Source: a virus
Lineage: Duplodnaviria; Heunggongvirae; Uroviricota; Caudoviricetes
Virus record (IMG/VR): IMGVR_UViG_2734482545_000011
Direction: 5' to 3' (one strand)
DNA: 40,605 nucleotides
In this document: positions 21,303 to 39,053 of the stretch, piece after piece
How positions within the stretch are numbered: the stretch's first letter is position 1
How the letters are laid out: the number at the start of each line of letters is the position of its first letter
Notes under the pieces: model-generated
What the model was told of the DNA's origin: nothing
The model's database searches: none
What the model saw: the letters and a program-made list of their open reading frames with translations, nothing else
Made by a program: the position numbers and the translations under genes

Positions 21303-21324
21303 AAAAAGCTCGCCGTAGCGAGCT
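21303..21324 (-). terminator. intrinsic terminator after the lipoprotein moron
   Basis: Minus strand AGCTCGC-TACG-GCGAGCT followed by TTTTATATTG, between lipoprotein gene 1 and the pinholin gene. Confidence 0.55.
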
Positions 21325-21449
21325 AATAAAATGTATTTCTCTGATATTATGTTTATTTGTATTAGCTCAGACTTGACATCACAGGTTTCGTATATAGAAC
21401 ATCATCAAATCTGTCAGTTTGCTATGAATGAGATATAGTAATTGAAGAG

Positions 21450-21845
21450 CTAACCTCGCATGTCAAAGCCAGATTTCTGAAAATCTCTGTAGACTTCCGG
21501 ATTGTTGAAGGCCGGAAATTTGGCTTTATGAGCTGCGGACTTTATCGCTTCGCAATAGGCTTTATCACCGTTACTGGTAGATATTTTTAACGCCGTGCCA
21601 TCCTGAGAGAATTCCATATGCAACCTGCATTTTTTCCCTTTCCAGTTATGCGGCTCATCAAGTTTGGCATTAATTGCAGCTCTGATTCCCCGCGCTTGCG
21701 CCCCCCATTCATCCTGATCATCCCAGCGTCCTGAACTGCAACTACCTGTAGCAGTAGTTTTGTGGCAATCTGAAGGGTGTAAAGGTGTGCATCCCGCAAC
21801 AAAACCGACCCAAAAAGTCAACATAACGATTTTCTTTAATCCCAC
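21450..21845 (-). CDS. outer-membrane lipoprotein with TolA domain III-like C-terminal domain (paralog 1)
   Basis: 131 aa; GTG start with GAGGAG RBS; signal peptide plus lipobox VAGC; C-terminal part (KKCRLHMEFSQDGTALKISTSNGDKAYCEAIKSAAHKAKFPAFNNPEVYRDFQKSGFD) aligns with paralog 2, including two conserved Cys. Confidence 0.55.
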   Translation of the reverse strand: MGLKKIVMLTFWVGFVAGCTPLHPSDCHKTTATGSCSSGRWDDQDEWGAQARGIRAAINAKLDEPHNWKGKKCRLHMEFSQDGTALKISTSNGDKAYCEAIKSAAHKAKFPAFNNPEVYRDFQKSGFDMRG

Positions 21846-21995
21846 TTCTTGCTCCTCAATCCATTAAAATCTCAGCAATAGTAGTTGTTACGTCCGCCAC
21901 TGGCTCAGAGCTGACTATCCGCTAAATTTAGCTCAGTGCCGTAGCTGTGTCAGAACAAACCTAAGCCGAAACCGTTTATTACAAAACAATAAATA

Positions 21996-22424
21996 TCAGG
22001 GTTTAAAATCCAGCACCCCATTTTGAAATACTTTATATACTTCCGGCGAAGGGGGGGCAGGTATATCAGCATTCTTTATCGCATTCATCGCTTCACGACA
22101 TAAATCGAGGTCTCCACTTTCTCTTTTAACCTCCAGTAGAAGGCCATTCGGGGCCATATGCATTCTCAGTGTACACTCTTTTCCTGAATACTTACTCGCA
22201 TCCCCGAACTGTTTTTCGATGGCGCTCTTGATTTGATGGGCATACAGACGGATATCCTCACTAACATCAGAAGTACGTTCAGATGAACTCACATACTGTG
22301 TCTCTATTGCTTTATCGGAGTAATATGATGTACGGTCATGATAATTTGTCGATACAGCATCAGTGCACCCGATAATAATCCCACTAATAATCAACGTAAG
22401 AATTGATGCGCTACGAAAACCCAT
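21996..22424 (-). CDS. outer-membrane lipoprotein with TolA domain III-like C-terminal domain (paralog 2)
   Basis: 142 aa; lipobox IIGC; C-terminus YAHQIKSAIEKQFGDASKYSGKECTLRMHMAPNGLLLEVKRESGDLDLCREAMNAIKNADIPAPPSPEVYKVFQNGVLDFKP closely matches my recollection of the E. coli TolA C-terminal domain (...GKTCTLRIKLAPDG...GGDPALCQAALAAAKLAKIPKPPSQAVYEVFKNAPLDFKP). Confidence 0.65.
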   Translation of the reverse strand: MGFRSASILTLIISGIIIGCTDAVSTNYHDRTSYYSDKAIETQYVSSSERTSDVSEDIRLYAHQIKSAIEKQFGDASKYSGKECTLRMHMAPNGLLLEVKRESGDLDLCREAMNAIKNADIPAPPSPEVYKVFQNGVLDFKP

Positions 22425-22453
22425 TTTTCCTCACATATGTCATATAGTAAAGG

Positions 22454-22483
22454 ATTATATATACCGTTGTTTTGGACGCTCAA
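22454..22483 (-). promoter_or_regulatory. candidate sigma70 promoter of the lipoprotein moron
   Basis: Minus strand TTGAGC - 18 bp - TATAAT, about 30 nt upstream of the paralog-2 ATG (GAGGA RBS). Confidence 0.35.
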
Positions 22484-23014
22484 ACAGCGAATCAGATCAA
22501 ATAAAACGCACATTTGTTAACATTTACACAAAGTCTGCGTGGGATATTCTGAAAGAATATCCATAATGTGGAGAGAATCTATTGAAGTGCATGGTGCCGG
22601 GTGCCTCCCGGTGAACAAAATGTTCGTGATACCTGTCGGCGACAGAAAAGGTTAATGGTATCACCCCACCGCACAGGGGGATTCACCATGCAGGAGTTTT
22701 CTTAGCAAACTCACTGCGCGCCCGGCAACTCCCAACCACATAAAATGCGGAGTTTGTGGCATTTATGCATATAACTCGCAGGAATTATCTTAAAAAACTG
22801 ATGTCGATCCGGATTAAAAAGAAGCAGGTCATCATCAGATGACTGGAAAAAAGGAAAACAAAAAATACTCATCATACAGTTTTGATTGCAGGGATGAGCC
22901 TGCTATGCACAATATGCAGAATATAAGCAAGATAAAAATATGCAGGCATATTATTTCGGATCTTGTTATTAACACAACCTTTTTAATAATCATTTGGCAT
23001 ACAATAAACCAGCC

Positions 23015-23041
23015 CAAAAAGAACCGCCTAAACAGGCGGTT
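23015..23041 (-). terminator. hairpin plus U-run in the Q-to-moron spacer (T2)
   Basis: Minus strand AACCGCC-TGTTTA-GGCGGTT followed by CTTTTTGGG. Confidence 0.45.
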
Positions 23042-23360
23042 GGTCAATACAAAGGATGCTTCGTCTTTATTATAGTAATCTGAGGCGTCGGGTGTCTTGT
23101 ATCAGACAACATATTGTCCCGCTAAACAGCGAATTACAAACCACCCTGCAATGATCTCTCATCTCATTTTATATGAGTTGACGACATCAGGATAACGCAT
23201 CATCAGCCCCTGCCAAGAAATATCAAAACTCCCGCCAGCAATGTGTTATCACAATATTGTAAAAAAAACACAGCACCGAAACTATAACTGGTCTCTGTTA
23301 TAATTTGGAGCAGAAAGACCAGTTGCCCAACTAGCAGCATTCTCCCCTGCTTTCCTGACG

Positions 23361-23389
23361 TAAAAAAACCGCATTAAGCGGTTTTTTTA
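23361..23389 (-). terminator. hairpin flanked by A- and T-runs about 80 bp after the Q-like stop (T1; tR-prime-like position)
   Basis: AAAAAAACCGC-TTAAT-GCGGTTTTTTT; reads as a terminator on either strand. Confidence 0.5.
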
Positions 23390-23468
23390 CGATGTCCATG
23401 TCTGCAATCCGCCTCGCGATACAGCTTTGCGAAGCATAGCAAAATTGAAGCAGTTTATACGTAAGAAA

Positions 23469-24011
23469 TCAAGCCATTTTCTCAGCAAATGATTCACGCA
23501 TGGGAATATATAGGGCATACTCAGCAACAGCTAACCAATTAGCAATCCGTTTTTCGCATGTGCTAAAACACCACTCTGGGTGTGCATCATTTAGCAATTC
23601 AGCCATTTTGCGCTTAGTCATCCCCCGCCCTTCATAGCGTTGCCGGAGAATGCAAATCAATCCTGGATGCTCTGCCAGCACCTCACTTATGACTCGATCA
23701 ATACATAACGCCTCTGCATCAGTACAATGCGCCAGCCAGCTCTTTTGCTTGCCGTTGATCATCTCTCGCAAAAACGCTTCCAGCTCAGCTTTCTCTATTC
23801 CCGCTTTTTTCATTCTGCGCAGGGCTTCATTAATGGCTGTTTTCGTCAGTTTTTTGGATGCCAACAACTGATTGAACATATTCCCTGACCTGCCACCGCC
23901 AATATACGACCAGCGCCCCCACATACGTAGTTTTCCCTGAATCCAGACACTTTCCAGCGTGGTGAGGCGAAGGTGTTCTCCGCTTTTTCCTGTATTCGTT
24001 GGGTAAATCAT
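23469..24011 (-). CDS. late antiterminator Q-like protein
   Basis: 180-aa ORF with several Cys/His; last gene of the nin-like block, immediately upstream of the late-region terminators and lysis genes. Assignment is mainly positional. Confidence 0.5.
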   Translation of the reverse strand: MIYPTNTGKSGEHLRLTTLESVWIQGKLRMWGRWSYIGGGRSGNMFNQLLASKKLTKTAINEALRRMKKAGIEKAELEAFLREMINGKQKSWLAHCTDAEALCIDRVISEVLAEHPGLICILRQRYEGRGMTKRKMAELLNDAHPEWCFSTCEKRIANWLAVAEYALYIPMRESFAEKMA

Positions 24012-24897: not shown

Positions 24898-24955
24898 TTC
24901 TCAATCTCTCGATGGCGCAGCGCAGCAGATGCCAGTTGTTCAGGCTGACGAATAA

Positions 24956-24983
24956 AGTATAAATAAACTGGCTATGGTGTAAA
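24956..24983 (-). promoter_or_regulatory. candidate sigma70 promoter for the nin/Q block
   Basis: Minus strand TTTACA - 16 bp - TATACT, about 60 nt upstream of the 199-aa gene start, at the edge of the AT-rich island. Confidence 0.4.
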
Positions 24984-25178
24984 GCCCCACATAGCATGAA
25001 CAAACACTACATATCAAATAGCTGGTACAAGGATAGAAATACGACACTTATTATTAAAAACGATTAGATAAATTACATTTTAATGTTATGCAAAAGTTCT
25101 TTTTTATCATAACATTTCAATAAAAGCATTACAGATGCAATCATCCCGTCATCATCAATTATTTAAGGTGGTTAAACA

Positions 25179-25277
25179 TGGAAAATAACAAGTTCGCACA
25201 TCTCGCTCCTTTTTTATCCGTAATCCTTTTCGCTTGTTGTTTTATATGGGCATTATTTTTATAAAGTAGCCACATGA
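25179..25277 (+). CDS. small hydrophobic peptide ORF (32 aa)
   Basis: AAGGTGG Shine-Dalgarno 6 nt before ATG; MENNKFAHLAPFLSVILFACCFIWALFYKVAT, one predicted TM helix; in an AT-rich intergenic stretch. Below the track cutoff; coordinates approximate. Confidence 0.3.
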
Positions 25278-25672
25278 TAAGTTGCTGGAATCATATTTCC
25301 CACTCAAGTCATTAACATTTGATAAGATATATCTAAAAGGACGCCTTTACATTATTTATGCGTATATAATTTATTTATATACACAGTAAAGGTATCCTGG
25401 GAAAATATTTATCGTTAAAAAATACATCATAAATAATTAAGCTGAAATTTCAGAACACAACTAATACACACAATAAGGTTCAGTAACAGTAATCTATGTG
25501 GACTACATCGAGATTTTTTGATTAAACTTTAATAACTTATTCCTAACACACAGAATGCATAAACTAAAAGTAAAACAAATAGTTATACGAAAAACAACCA
25601 TATTTATTCTATCTTCTCCTCTAATCAACATATCAATTATGTGTTTCATAACAGCTTGACATAACCCTCCAA

Positions 25673-25695
25673 AAGATGCATTTTTAATGCATGTT
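25673..25695 (+). promoter_or_regulatory. NsrR-type 11-1-11 inverted repeat overlapping the predicted promoter of the YeaR-like gene
   Basis: AAGATGCATTT-T-TAATGCATGTT (ATGCAT ... ATGCAT), downstream of a perfect TTGACA at 25656-25661 and about 16 nt before the GGAGGAGGTGG RBS. Confidence 0.4.
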
Positions 25696-25710
25696 TTGGA
25701 GGAGGTGGTT

Positions 25711-26049
25711 ATGACACACAAGAGAATTCCTAAAGATTGGGTAATCAAACGCTCAACTCCGTTCTTCACAAAAGAGAACGTACCTTCAGCGTTATTAACA
25801 CATCATAATACAGCAGCAGGTGTTTTTGGGCAGTTGTGCGTAATGGAAGGCACTGTAACATATTATGGTTTTACTGATGAGAATGCTACTGAACCGGAGA
25901 TAAAAGTAGTCATTAATGCTGGCGCTTTTGCAACAAGCCCACCACAATACTGGCACCGTGTTGAACTAAGCGATGATGCTCAGTTTAATATTAACTTTTG
26001 GGTCGCTCCAGACTTTTCGGGCGAAAAAGTCTATAGCACCAAAAAATAG
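25711..26049 (+). CDS. YeaR-like DUF1971 protein
   Basis: 112 aa from the internal ATG with a very strong GGAGGAGGTGG RBS; pattern RSTPFF...H...GV.G.L.VMEG.V.YYGF.DE...EPE...AG.FA..PPQ.WH.VE...DA.FNI.F.VAP resembles E. coli YeaR as I recall it. Confidence 0.5.
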   Translation: MTHKRIPKDWVIKRSTPFFTKENVPSALLTHHNTAAGVFGQLCVMEGTVTYYGFTDENATEPEIKVVINAGAFATSPPQYWHRVELSDDAQFNINFWVAPDFSGEKVYSTKK

Positions 26050-27686: not shown

Positions 27687-28709
27687 TTAAAATTCATGAA
27701 TGAACGGTTTGTCATCTGGTTGCAAAATGGTGGTTTTATTCGTTGCTACATTTAAACTGTTGTAGAGCATAATTGCCAGGTTCGATGCATTTTCAATCAG
27801 CGTTTCAAGATCCTGGTCTGTAATCACTACGAGGTTCCCTTCTTTATCCTTTCCACCACGATGCACTAAGTGATTTCGATTGAGGGTTGCCAATTCAATA
27901 GCTTCTATCGGACAGTCTTTTTGTACTTTTATATCGAATGTAGCTTCATAGCGGTCGATTACCTTTTTAGTGCTATGCCAGCTTGCACTGATCAAGTGTT
28001 CCTTGATTGACCTGATTAGCTCTCCCCTAATTTTCTCGATGGGTTCACCCTTGAAAGGCAACGCAGCAATATCTTTGCTTACTTTAAATTCAGTCTTACC
28101 TTTTTCTATACAATTGGCTATGTAGACATCATCTTTCTCTATAGAATTAATGAATAGCTCAACATAAAGCGTTTCCAAAGCTGTAATAACATTCGTGTAG
28201 AGCAAACTAAGCAAGTGGTTTTTTTGCTGTTGTTCAGTTTTATCTTTTGCAAGTTTTTTTATTTTATCGATATTATCAATGAATTTTAAATACGGATTAC
28301 CGGAAGACGTTACAGCGTCGTAGATATCATCATCGTACCAATCATCTATATTATTTGAGTTTCCAGACCAGTCAAAACATTGTGTTTGTAATTCATCTAC
28401 TAATTCCTCAATATACTCAGATTTAACATATTGACCGAAGATGGATTGTAGTTCTTCGCTCGCATCATACGGCCCGCCATATATGTAAGCATAGCCACCT
28501 TCTCTACTTTCATACGGACAAGCATTTGCCGGATCTTCAAAGTTTTCAAAGAACCAGTTTTTCATTACTTCGAGTTGATCTTTTTTGCTTATGTATTTTA
28601 AAGATTTTAGTGGAACTTTCTTTCCATTAACCTCGAAAACAATTTTCACGATGTAACGCTCCCTTGTATCAATTGCGCAACTATTATACCACAGCGAAAT
28701 ACAGGGCAT
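27687..28709 (-). CDS. hypothetical protein, gene A of the AT-rich two-gene operon (C-terminal HEPN-like R-N-x-x-x-H motif)
   Basis: Track ORF 27687-28778; start placed at the ATG with a perfect TAAGGAGG 6 nt upstream (MPCISLWYNSCAIDTRERYIVKIVFEVNGKK...), 340 aa; C-terminal segment EAIELATLNRNHLVHRGG contains R-N-H-L-V-H (Rx4H). Confidence 0.7.
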   Translation of the reverse strand: MPCISLWYNSCAIDTRERYIVKIVFEVNGKKVPLKSLKYISKKDQLEVMKNWFFENFEDPANACPYESREGGYAYIYGGPYDASEELQSIFGQYVKSEYIEELVDELQTQCFDWSGNSNNIDDWYDDDIYDAVTSSGNPYLKFIDNIDKIKKLAKDKTEQQQKNHLLSLLYTNVITALETLYVELFINSIEKDDVYIANCIEKGKTEFKVSKDIAALPFKGEPIEKIRGELIRSIKEHLISASWHSTKKVIDRYEATFDIKVQKDCPIEAIELATLNRNHLVHRGGKDKEGNLVVITDQDLETLIENASNLAIMLYNSLNVATNKTTILQPDDKPFIHEF

Positions 28710-28747
28710 AACCTGCCTCCTTAAACTAACATACCATGAGCCAGCAA

Positions 28748-28773
28748 TGTCCGCTATTGGCACAAAGCGGACA
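28748..28773 (-). promoter_or_regulatory. 8-bp inverted repeat upstream of gene A (possible operator)
   Basis: TGTCCGCT - 10 bp - AGCGGACA, about 40 bp upstream of the gene A start codon; no U-run follows, so not a terminator. Confidence 0.3.
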
Positions 28774-28847
28774 ACCACGCTAGCTCTCCCCTGTGCCAGA
28801 AAAATGTCAATTTACATATGAACTAATGCTCTTTGATCTAGTAACGT

Positions 28848-38852: not shown

Positions 38853-39053
38853 ATGGAGGTGTTCATGTATAAAATTACCGCCACTATTGAAAAGGAAGGT
38901 GGCACTCCTACTAACTGGACAAGATATTCAAAATCTAAACTAACGAAATCAGAATGCGAAAAAATGCTCTCAGGTAAAAAAGAAGCAGGCGTTTCCAGAG
39001 AGCAGAAAGTAAAACTGATAAATTTTAATTGCGAGAAACTTCAGTCCTCGTGA
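38853..39053 (+). CDS. ydaC: YdaC-like protein
   Basis: MEVFMYKITATIEKEGGTPTNWTRYSKSKLTKSECEKMLSGKKEAGVSREQKVKLINFNCEKLQSS; alternative start at the second ATG (38865) after GGAGGT. Confidence 0.55.
   Translation: MEVFMYKITATIEKEGGTPTNWTRYSKSKLTKSECEKMLSGKKEAGVSREQKVKLINFNCEKLQSS

Follow-up and report, generated by a model that had tools for sequence, protein, structure and literature searches.

What occupies the kilobase that lies between the Q gene and the moron of this lambdoid prophage? The window, by which we mean the whole stretch of 40,605 nucleotides analysed (IMG/VR record IMGVR_UViG_2734482545_000011), is a Rac-like lambdoid prophage of E. coli with its late genes on the minus strand; a RalA antitoxin RNA at 38871-39049 (-) (Rfam RF02694, 225 bits) marks the element as a Rac-type prophage. 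Reading down the minus strand, a Q gene (180 aa) is followed by a gap of 1044 bases (22425-23468), by two tolA-like genes, and by the genes for holin, lysozyme and Rz. Most of the gap is present in 446 E. coli genomes, with an identity of 99.4-99.9% among the matches listed. The reading that we propose, and to which we give a probability of about 75%, is that the gap represents the untranslated late-operon leader of the prophage, transcribed from the minus strand and carrying a phage-21-type Q cassette in its first ~110 nt; the remaining ~900 nt would be a mosaic of late-leader segments, different pieces of which recur in other lambdoid prophages. The features of the locus are collected in Table 1.

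Table 1. Features assigned to the leader region and its flanks, listed in the direction of late transcription (window coordinates).
Feature	Position	Strand	Basis or remark
Q-type antiterminator gene, 180 aa, DUF1133	23469..24011	-	Pfam, hhalign to Q21
Candidate late promoter and Q-loading region	23433..23472	-	conserved geometry, link to DUF1133 genes
Candidate -35 TTGATT	23472-23467	-	overlaps Q stop codon (23469-23471)
Candidate -10 TTCAAT	23449-23444	-	17-nt spacer from -35
-10-like TATGCT, candidate sigma-dependent pause element	23438-23433	-	5 nt after TTCAAT
Predicted pR'-tR' leader RNA, about 75 nt	23363..23437	-	5' end inferred, +/- 10 nt
Hairpin 1, symmetric two-way intrinsic terminator, putative tR' equivalent	23359..23391	.	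fold energy, position in relatives
Mosaic non-coding spacer	23100..23358	-	79% identity to L032
Promoter-like site AAGACA-18-TATAAT, doubtful, just upstream of hairpin 2	23069..23098	-	10/12 matches
Hairpin 2, second intrinsic terminator of the leader	23016..23041	-	terminator scan; stem kept in relatives
Conserved non-coding block with weak third hairpin at 22828-22843	22816..22969	-	76-83% identical in L031, L033
Conserved 5' flank of the STnc100 element	22722..22797	-	90-95% identical in L031, L033
STnc100 member (RF02076; PasD/EcOnc27 kind), sense to late transcription	22535..22721	-	Rfam full-model match
Moron promoter-like site TTGAGC-18-TATAAT	22454..22483	-	30 nt before ATG at 22424
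Moron: two TolA-C-terminal-domain lipoprotein genes and terminator, upstream of phage-21-type holin gene	21307..22424	-	Pfam
TolA-C-terminal-domain lipoprotein gene	21996-22424	-	Pfam TolA
TolA-C-terminal-domain lipoprotein gene	21450-21845	-	Pfam TolA
Moron terminator, before holin gene	21307-21324	-	terminator scan

The gap had at the outset been judged to hold no convincing open reading frame, and this is borne out by comparison: in the homologous stretches of three other loci (L031, L032 and L033) no ORF of the gap is conserved, its small ORFs being broken there by 1-nt indels, and RefSeq has a feature under the 1044 bases in no row among the matches listed. ORFs of 45, 54, 70 and 78 residues were considered as coding and rejected on account of such non-triplet indels in the homologs. 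The gap had also been described as AT-rich, which holds only in moderation: its GC content is 38-42% and thus lies below the 46-50% of the flanking genes. tRNA genes were sought in the window with ARAGORN, and tRNA remnants in the leader with ARAGORN and Rfam searches; none were found.

The gene immediately upstream, which the original prediction had named Q, earns that name on several grounds. Its product matches Pfam DUF1133 at 2.5e-107 and, at threshold level, PF06530 (26.1 bits, cut-off 26), which is the Q21/Q933W family (bioRxiv 10.1101/651190). An hhalign comparison between a profile of 17 homologs and the Q protein of phage 21 gives a probability of 93.9% (E 1.6e-7, 132 columns), aligning the DUF1133 profile to residues 7-151 of Q21 with an insertion of ~30 residues in the DUF1133 protein, and homologs of the protein are named antitermination protein Q in phage records. 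The best PDB sequence match of the product (phmmer) is again Q21, but with an E of only 0.27. Together these comparisons point to a Q-type antiterminator that is a remote homolog of phage 21 Q; the remoteness of the sequence similarity, with the Pfam match at threshold and the PDB match where it is, counts against a phage-21-type reading of the locus. A second Q-family gene did not turn up when the six largest ORFs between 25.7 and 30.8 kb were inspected. No paper in the literature collection searched contains the term DUF1133.

Directly after the Q stop codon, the minus strand carries the hexamers TTGATT, TTCAAT and TATGCT, separated by 17 and 5 nt. This cassette is unique in the window, where 0.01 occurrences are expected by chance, and it follows the DUF1133 genes: among 27 loci with DUF1133 homologs, from several genera, it is found in every locus with an intact gene. 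The general form, TTGnnn-17-TT[CGA]AAT-5-TAnGCT, recurs in 25/25 related loci, whose Q proteins are 51-99% identical (one of them has a spacer of 18 nt), and in the DUF1133 loci a terminator follows the cassette within at most about 130 nt. The version in the LT-II prophage Rac-SA53 reads TTGATT-17-TATCTT-5-TAAGAT. A scan of IMG/VR with the cassette pattern provides an independent set of 80 usable contigs; a DUF1133 gene precedes the cassette in the same orientation in 75 of the 77 that include enough upstream DNA, and in the other two the antirepressor gene of an inserted module stands immediately before it. In about 10 of the 75, the DUF1133 Q gene and the cassette are parted by a gap of 0.9-1.9 kb. 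The cassette keeps its identity when it is displaced from Q, as in a Salmonella locus (L009), where it comes after an inserted isrK/C4/antirepressor module of ~0.85 kb, and in a Pantoea locus (L013), where it comes after a hok-like insertion and directly before the holin and endolysin genes.

The late promoter, which had been expected in the gap and left unplaced, is thus most likely TTGATT-17-TTCAAT. That pR', the qut site and a short late leader should lie in this kilobase can, on sequence grounds, be narrowed to its first 110 nt (23472-23363), within which all three would fall. The geometry TTGnnn-17-TT[CGA]AAT is conserved in 25/25 loci, but the -10 of the window, TTCAAT, is weak. In cassettes of types B and C, the -35 and the spacer lie inside the Q coding sequence, so that their conservation may partly reflect the protein.

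Downstream of the cassette, 77 nt after the Q stop codon, begins hairpin 1, with perfect 14-nt arms (23359-23372 and 23378-23391) enclosing a 5-nt loop. It had been drawn at 23361-23389, with flanking A and T runs and ~80 bp after the stop codon, and needs only this small extension. Its folding energy is -19.7 kcal/mol (z -8.2), which is reached by 0/200 shuffles. With its T-run base-paired to its A-run, it escaped a simple scan for terminators. All related loci that have the cassette also have a terminator at this position, built on differing stems, and in 76/78 IMG/VR contigs a terminator ends 72-82 nt after TAnGCT (measured to the end of the T-run), again with several different stems. This conserved spacing argues that the intrinsic terminator formed by hairpin 1 is the equivalent of tR', and predicts a leader RNA of about 75 nt from pR' to tR'.

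Two further ways of reading the leader were tried and set aside. The stretch 23362-23435 aligns over its full length with the isrK model (RF01394), at 21.6 bits against a gathering threshold of 50, while true isrK copies in L005 and L009 reach 67-81 bits; membership is rejected, since the score is below threshold and the isrK of relatives sits in the inserted C4/antirepressor module, after which the cassette reappears. A conserved 5' hairpin starting from the GCU of TAnGCT was considered as part of the signal; by shuffle tests it is not a general feature, with z-scores of -4 to -6.6 in type B only, -2.9 in Rac-SA53, -1.6 in the window, and about 0 in L013, L015, L009 and type C, and the cassette subtypes could not be aligned in one register for the counting of pairs.

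The phage 21 locus is annotated in the order Q stop codon, 7 nt, -35 (TTGACA), QBE (ATTGAGCA, AATGAGCA), -10 (AACACT), start, pause element (TAAGCTG), which in the notation used here is TTGACA-17-AACACT-7-TAAGCTG; its terminator, which sets the leader at ~50 nt, has tRNA genes and then the holin gene behind it. The window resembles it in having a Q of the same superfamily, a candidate promoter whose first bases lie at or next to the Q stop codon, with a 17-nt spacer and a weak -10, then TAnGCT as a strong -10-like hexamer where the transcript would begin, a terminator with a short leader, and a downstream holin of the phage 21 type. At the sequence level, TATGCT would provide the -10-like pause element in the initial transcribed region; TAnGCT is of one invariant type in the relatives and falls into the same class as TAAGCTG of phage 21. 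The window differs in that its Q, with the ~30-residue insertion, is only remotely similar; in that the gap from -10 to TAnGCT is 5 nt rather than 7; in that its leader would be about 75 nt instead of about 50; and in that about 940 nt and the moron lie between tR' and the lysis genes, with no tRNA genes. Loci L004, L007, L011 and L030-L033 do carry tRNA genes there, in the manner of phage 21 and the Stx phages, where a tRNA gene cluster follows tR'. It differs, too, in the QBE: two direct 8-bp repeats between -35 and -10, like those of phage 21, are not recognised in the 17-nt spacer of the window (TCTTACGTATAAACTGC). Relatives of type B contain AGTGAGCC-like words that resemble ATTGAGCA of the phage 21 QBE.

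The position of the transcription start depends on how TATGCT is read. It is a better -10 match than TTCAAT, which is without the usual A at the second position, so that the start could sit about 11 nt further downstream; with TATGCT as an extended -10, transcription would start near 23426 and give a leader of about 64 nt, and the pause element would be the downstream TGTATCGC. TAnGCT is in fact the best-conserved hexamer, with the key A and T positions, and is preceded by TGn in the window (TG one base upstream) and in most type B loci. However, no locus has a -35-like hexamer 16-18 nt upstream of TAnGCT; TTGnnn stands exactly 17 nt before TT[CGA]AAT whichever of four unrelated sequences lies upstream; Rac-SA53 has a good -10, TATCTT, at the -10 position; the TG before TAnGCT is absent in L011 and L015; and the pause element of phage 21, as annotated from published work, is TAAGCT(G). 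We consider the downstream start unlikely, while granting it some weight, and favour TAnGCT as a pause element, as in phage 21, rather than as a -10, because of the first three of these points.

With TATGCT as the pause element, RNA polymerase would start at the TTGATT-17-TTCAAT promoter, which overlaps the Q stop codon, and sigma-70 would hold it in a promoter-proximal pause at TATGCT, at the very start of the transcript. Without Q, the polymerase would stop at hairpin 1 and free the leader RNA of about 75 nt. The DUF1133 Q protein, when present, would join the polymerase at the pause and render it resistant to terminators; neither hairpins 1 and 2 nor the weak third hairpin nor the moron terminator would then keep it from reaching the genes for holin, lysozyme and Rz. 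We infer these steps (start, pause, Q loading and read-through), as well as any activity of the RNAs, from sequence and homology. Short RNAs that start at pR' and end at tR' without Q are known in lambda (6S RNA) and in Stx phages (the StxS leader RNA); unlike in those systems, the Q of the window is of a different family, and the leaders have no sequence relation. The leader of ~75 nt from the DUF1133-Q cassette might likewise be stable and act in trans, as has been described for IsrK and StxS, a proposal that we regard as doubtful, as we do the separate one, taken up below, that STnc100 elements act in cis within late leaders.

A link to Gifsy-1 is provided by L009, whose Q is 83-84% identical to that of the window and whose genes have the same order, followed by isrK: DUF1367, YbcO, DUF1133, isrK, a small ORF and an antirepressor gene. 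This matches the order antQ-isrK-orf45-anrP of Gifsy-1, in which AntQ antiterminates in vivo (PMC4825925), so that AntQ most likely belongs to the DUF1133 family, as judged by synteny. Unlike Gifsy-1, the window has no isrK, and the isrK/C4/antirepressor unit of L009 has been inserted so as to part Q from a cassette that resembles the one in the window. The inserted module (isrK, c4-a1b1, C4 antisense RNA, a small ORF and the antirepressor gene) resembles the immI region of P1; it occurs in two copies in L009 (1290-2090 and 4575-5378), in L005 (4575-4776) and in IMG/VR loci such as L058, L064 and L066, and some relatives have it as an insertion that separates the DUF1133 Q gene from the promoter/terminator cassette. 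In L013 (4692-4997) the ORF between the DUF1133 Q gene and the cassette is Hok/Gef-like. Rac-SA53 (L034, 4037-5723) has pertussis-like toxin genes, eplBA, at the position of the tolA moron, with a Q of the same family before them.

Beyond hairpin 1, the spacer that leads to hairpin 2 (23100-23358) is 79% identical to positions 3001-3169 of L032, where it lies downstream of four tRNA genes and behind a different Q. Hairpin 2 itself has an 8-bp stem (23022-23029 and 23034-23041), followed on the minus strand by C and T5. Taken alone it is weak (-11.6 to -13 kcal/mol, z -1.7) and no more stable than its shuffles; L031 and L004 preserve both stem and T-run around a different loop, so that the hairpin with a U-run originally proposed at 23015-23041 can be retained as a weaker terminator. 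A comparison made with the hairpin-2 block finds it in E. coli SE11 (NC_011415) as well. Both hairpins do share the AACCGC/GCGGTT stem that had been pointed out, but nothing of significance follows from it: AACCGC...GCGGTT has three matches in the window (0.01 expected), the third forming a hairpin at an unrelated site, 90-107 (AACCGCCCGCAGGCGGTT), and the stem is also found at unrelated places in other loci. The notion that hairpins 1 and 2 are related copies, arisen by duplication, is rejected on these grounds; the stem is of a common, generic terminator type and gives no evidence of kinship between hairpins 1 and 2.

Just upstream of hairpin 2, the sequence AAGACA-18-TATAAT is the best sigma-70 match in the region, with 10/12 matching positions; it is kept in L031, and its -10 reads TAACAA in L004. 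With hairpin 2 it could form a gene of its own, from which the lysogen would make a small RNA of about 50 nt: an orphan promoter is here paired with a terminator, and the body of the RNA (CATCCTTTGTATTGACCAACCGCC) is conserved in L031 and L004. Since the -10 is lost in L004, Rfam gives no match above noise, and the fold has a z of only -1.8, we hold such a gene to be improbable. The same pair could also be the late promoter and tR', with the terminator about 50 nt downstream, hairpin 1 then serving only to end the early (Q) operon. The loss of the -10 in L004 tells against this assignment as well; moreover, the unit of promoter and hairpin 2 is limited to the Rac-like context and a few relatives, while the cassette next to Q accompanies this Q family in several genera and in L013 stands directly before the lysis genes, all of which makes it very improbable. 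That the ~320 nt between the hairpins might encode a small RNA, as once suggested, or else a small hydrophobic protein (the ORF of 45 aa at 23203-23340 is an example), is highly improbable: the segment does contain ORFs of 45-70 aa and has 79% conservation in L032, but L032 shows a 1-nt indel and has lost the start region, the long hairpin at 23285-23321 is not conserved, Rfam has no match in the segment, and its fold (z -1.8) is no better than that of shuffles.

The lower leader continues with the conserved non-coding block, which differs from L031 and L033 by non-triplet indels and contains the weak third hairpin (-7.8 kcal/mol, z -3.25); L033 has the same stem there, closed by a different loop. 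A 60-nt segment (CGGGGATATCACGTCAGGGGATGAAGG...) of the L031 and L033 leaders is absent from the window at 22798/22799. Downstream of hairpin 2, and missed by the original prediction, lies a member of the STnc100 family, with 86.6 bits against a gathering threshold of 47 over model positions 1-206. It has the invariant GGUGAAUCCCCC...GGGG and CACCGGGAGGCACCCGG blocks, and its centroid fold (z -3.05) reproduces the family structure, including the closing helix that encloses the conserved hairpins. Among 10 copies, this closing helix and one neighbouring inner helix covary through compensatory changes, and two hairpins of the element are invariant. Like PasD, to which the family is related (bioRxiv 10.64898/2026.05.13.724894), and like EcOnc27, downstream of stx2B, with which it overlaps (PMC12711010), the copy lies in sense orientation between Q and the lysis genes. 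Unlike the family consensus, its 3' hairpin (GGAUAUUCU/AGAAUAUCC) is followed by CACGCAG and not by a U-run; and the 5' flank of the element (22722-22797) contains no recognisable sigma-70 promoter. Members of the family are transcribed in EHEC lysogens: all 11 copies of STnc100 in EDL933 are, one of them as confirmed by Northern blot (PMC5331693), and a discrete, Hfq-associated transcript has been demonstrated for other copies of the family (PMC5331693, PMC12711010). The window has a single copy, whereas L033 (3310-4425) and L031 (3436-3609 and 4331-4793) have tandem arrays of 4-5, all in sense orientation within the late leader; some of these tandem copies have canonical terminators and others do not.

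The 3' part of the gap, from within this element to the moron (22425-22615), is 100% identical in prophages with an unrelated, lambda-type Q. The junction at 22615 (-) is the exact 5' edge of the invariant STnc100 block TTCACCGGGAGGCACCCGG, so that the conserved core of the element marks a recombination junction; from there on, moron included, the window matches at 100% identity prophages that have tRNA genes and a Q of unrelated origin (L002). The sense orientation, the occurrence in 1-5 tandem copies, the invariant junction sequences and the window copy without promoter or U-run could together suggest that STnc100 elements are cis-acting structured modules of the Q-dependent late leader and not primarily free base-pairing small RNAs, which we think rather unlikely. 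Were it true, the STnc100 core would be a crossover point for the exchange of morons between prophages with unrelated Q, and possibly a site of RNA processing or stability that parts the moron from the leader.

The two genes of the moron at the end of the leader match Pfam TolA at 2.4e-23 and 1.3e-14, and the following holin gene has a Pfam match at 4.5e-35. The moron has a promoter-like site of its own, TTGAGC-18-TATAAT, which had been overlooked and which would let the tolA-like genes be expressed in the lysogen.

On the other side of Q, the window is very AT-rich at 24900-25700 (28-31% GC), upstream of the DUF1367 gene. Near this stretch are a DUF1971 ORF at 25687-26049 (+), on the opposite strand, and a 363-aa ORF at 27687-28778 (-) with a weak match to the HEPN/RES N-terminal domain. 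L001, otherwise near-identical to the window, has a different insert here, so that this part may be variable cargo or a defence island.

These considerations suggest that the gap is an ordinary lambdoid late leader, formerly blank and now annotated; its features belong to known kinds and reveal no new kind of system. The new content is modest, comprising a probable Q-utilisation cassette for an uncharacterised DUF1133 branch of the Q21 superfamily and one atypical copy of STnc100. Most of the stretch is present in 446 E. coli genomes, and those inspected carry no annotation there, which the analysis now supplies; it also offers a concrete candidate Q-utilisation site for the DUF1133 antiterminators, which Pfam and RefSeq file under "unknown function" and which probably include the toxic AntQ of Gifsy-1. 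Behind this switch would stand toxin and envelope morons (tolA-like here, pertussis-like in Rac-SA53), as stx stands behind Q933W.
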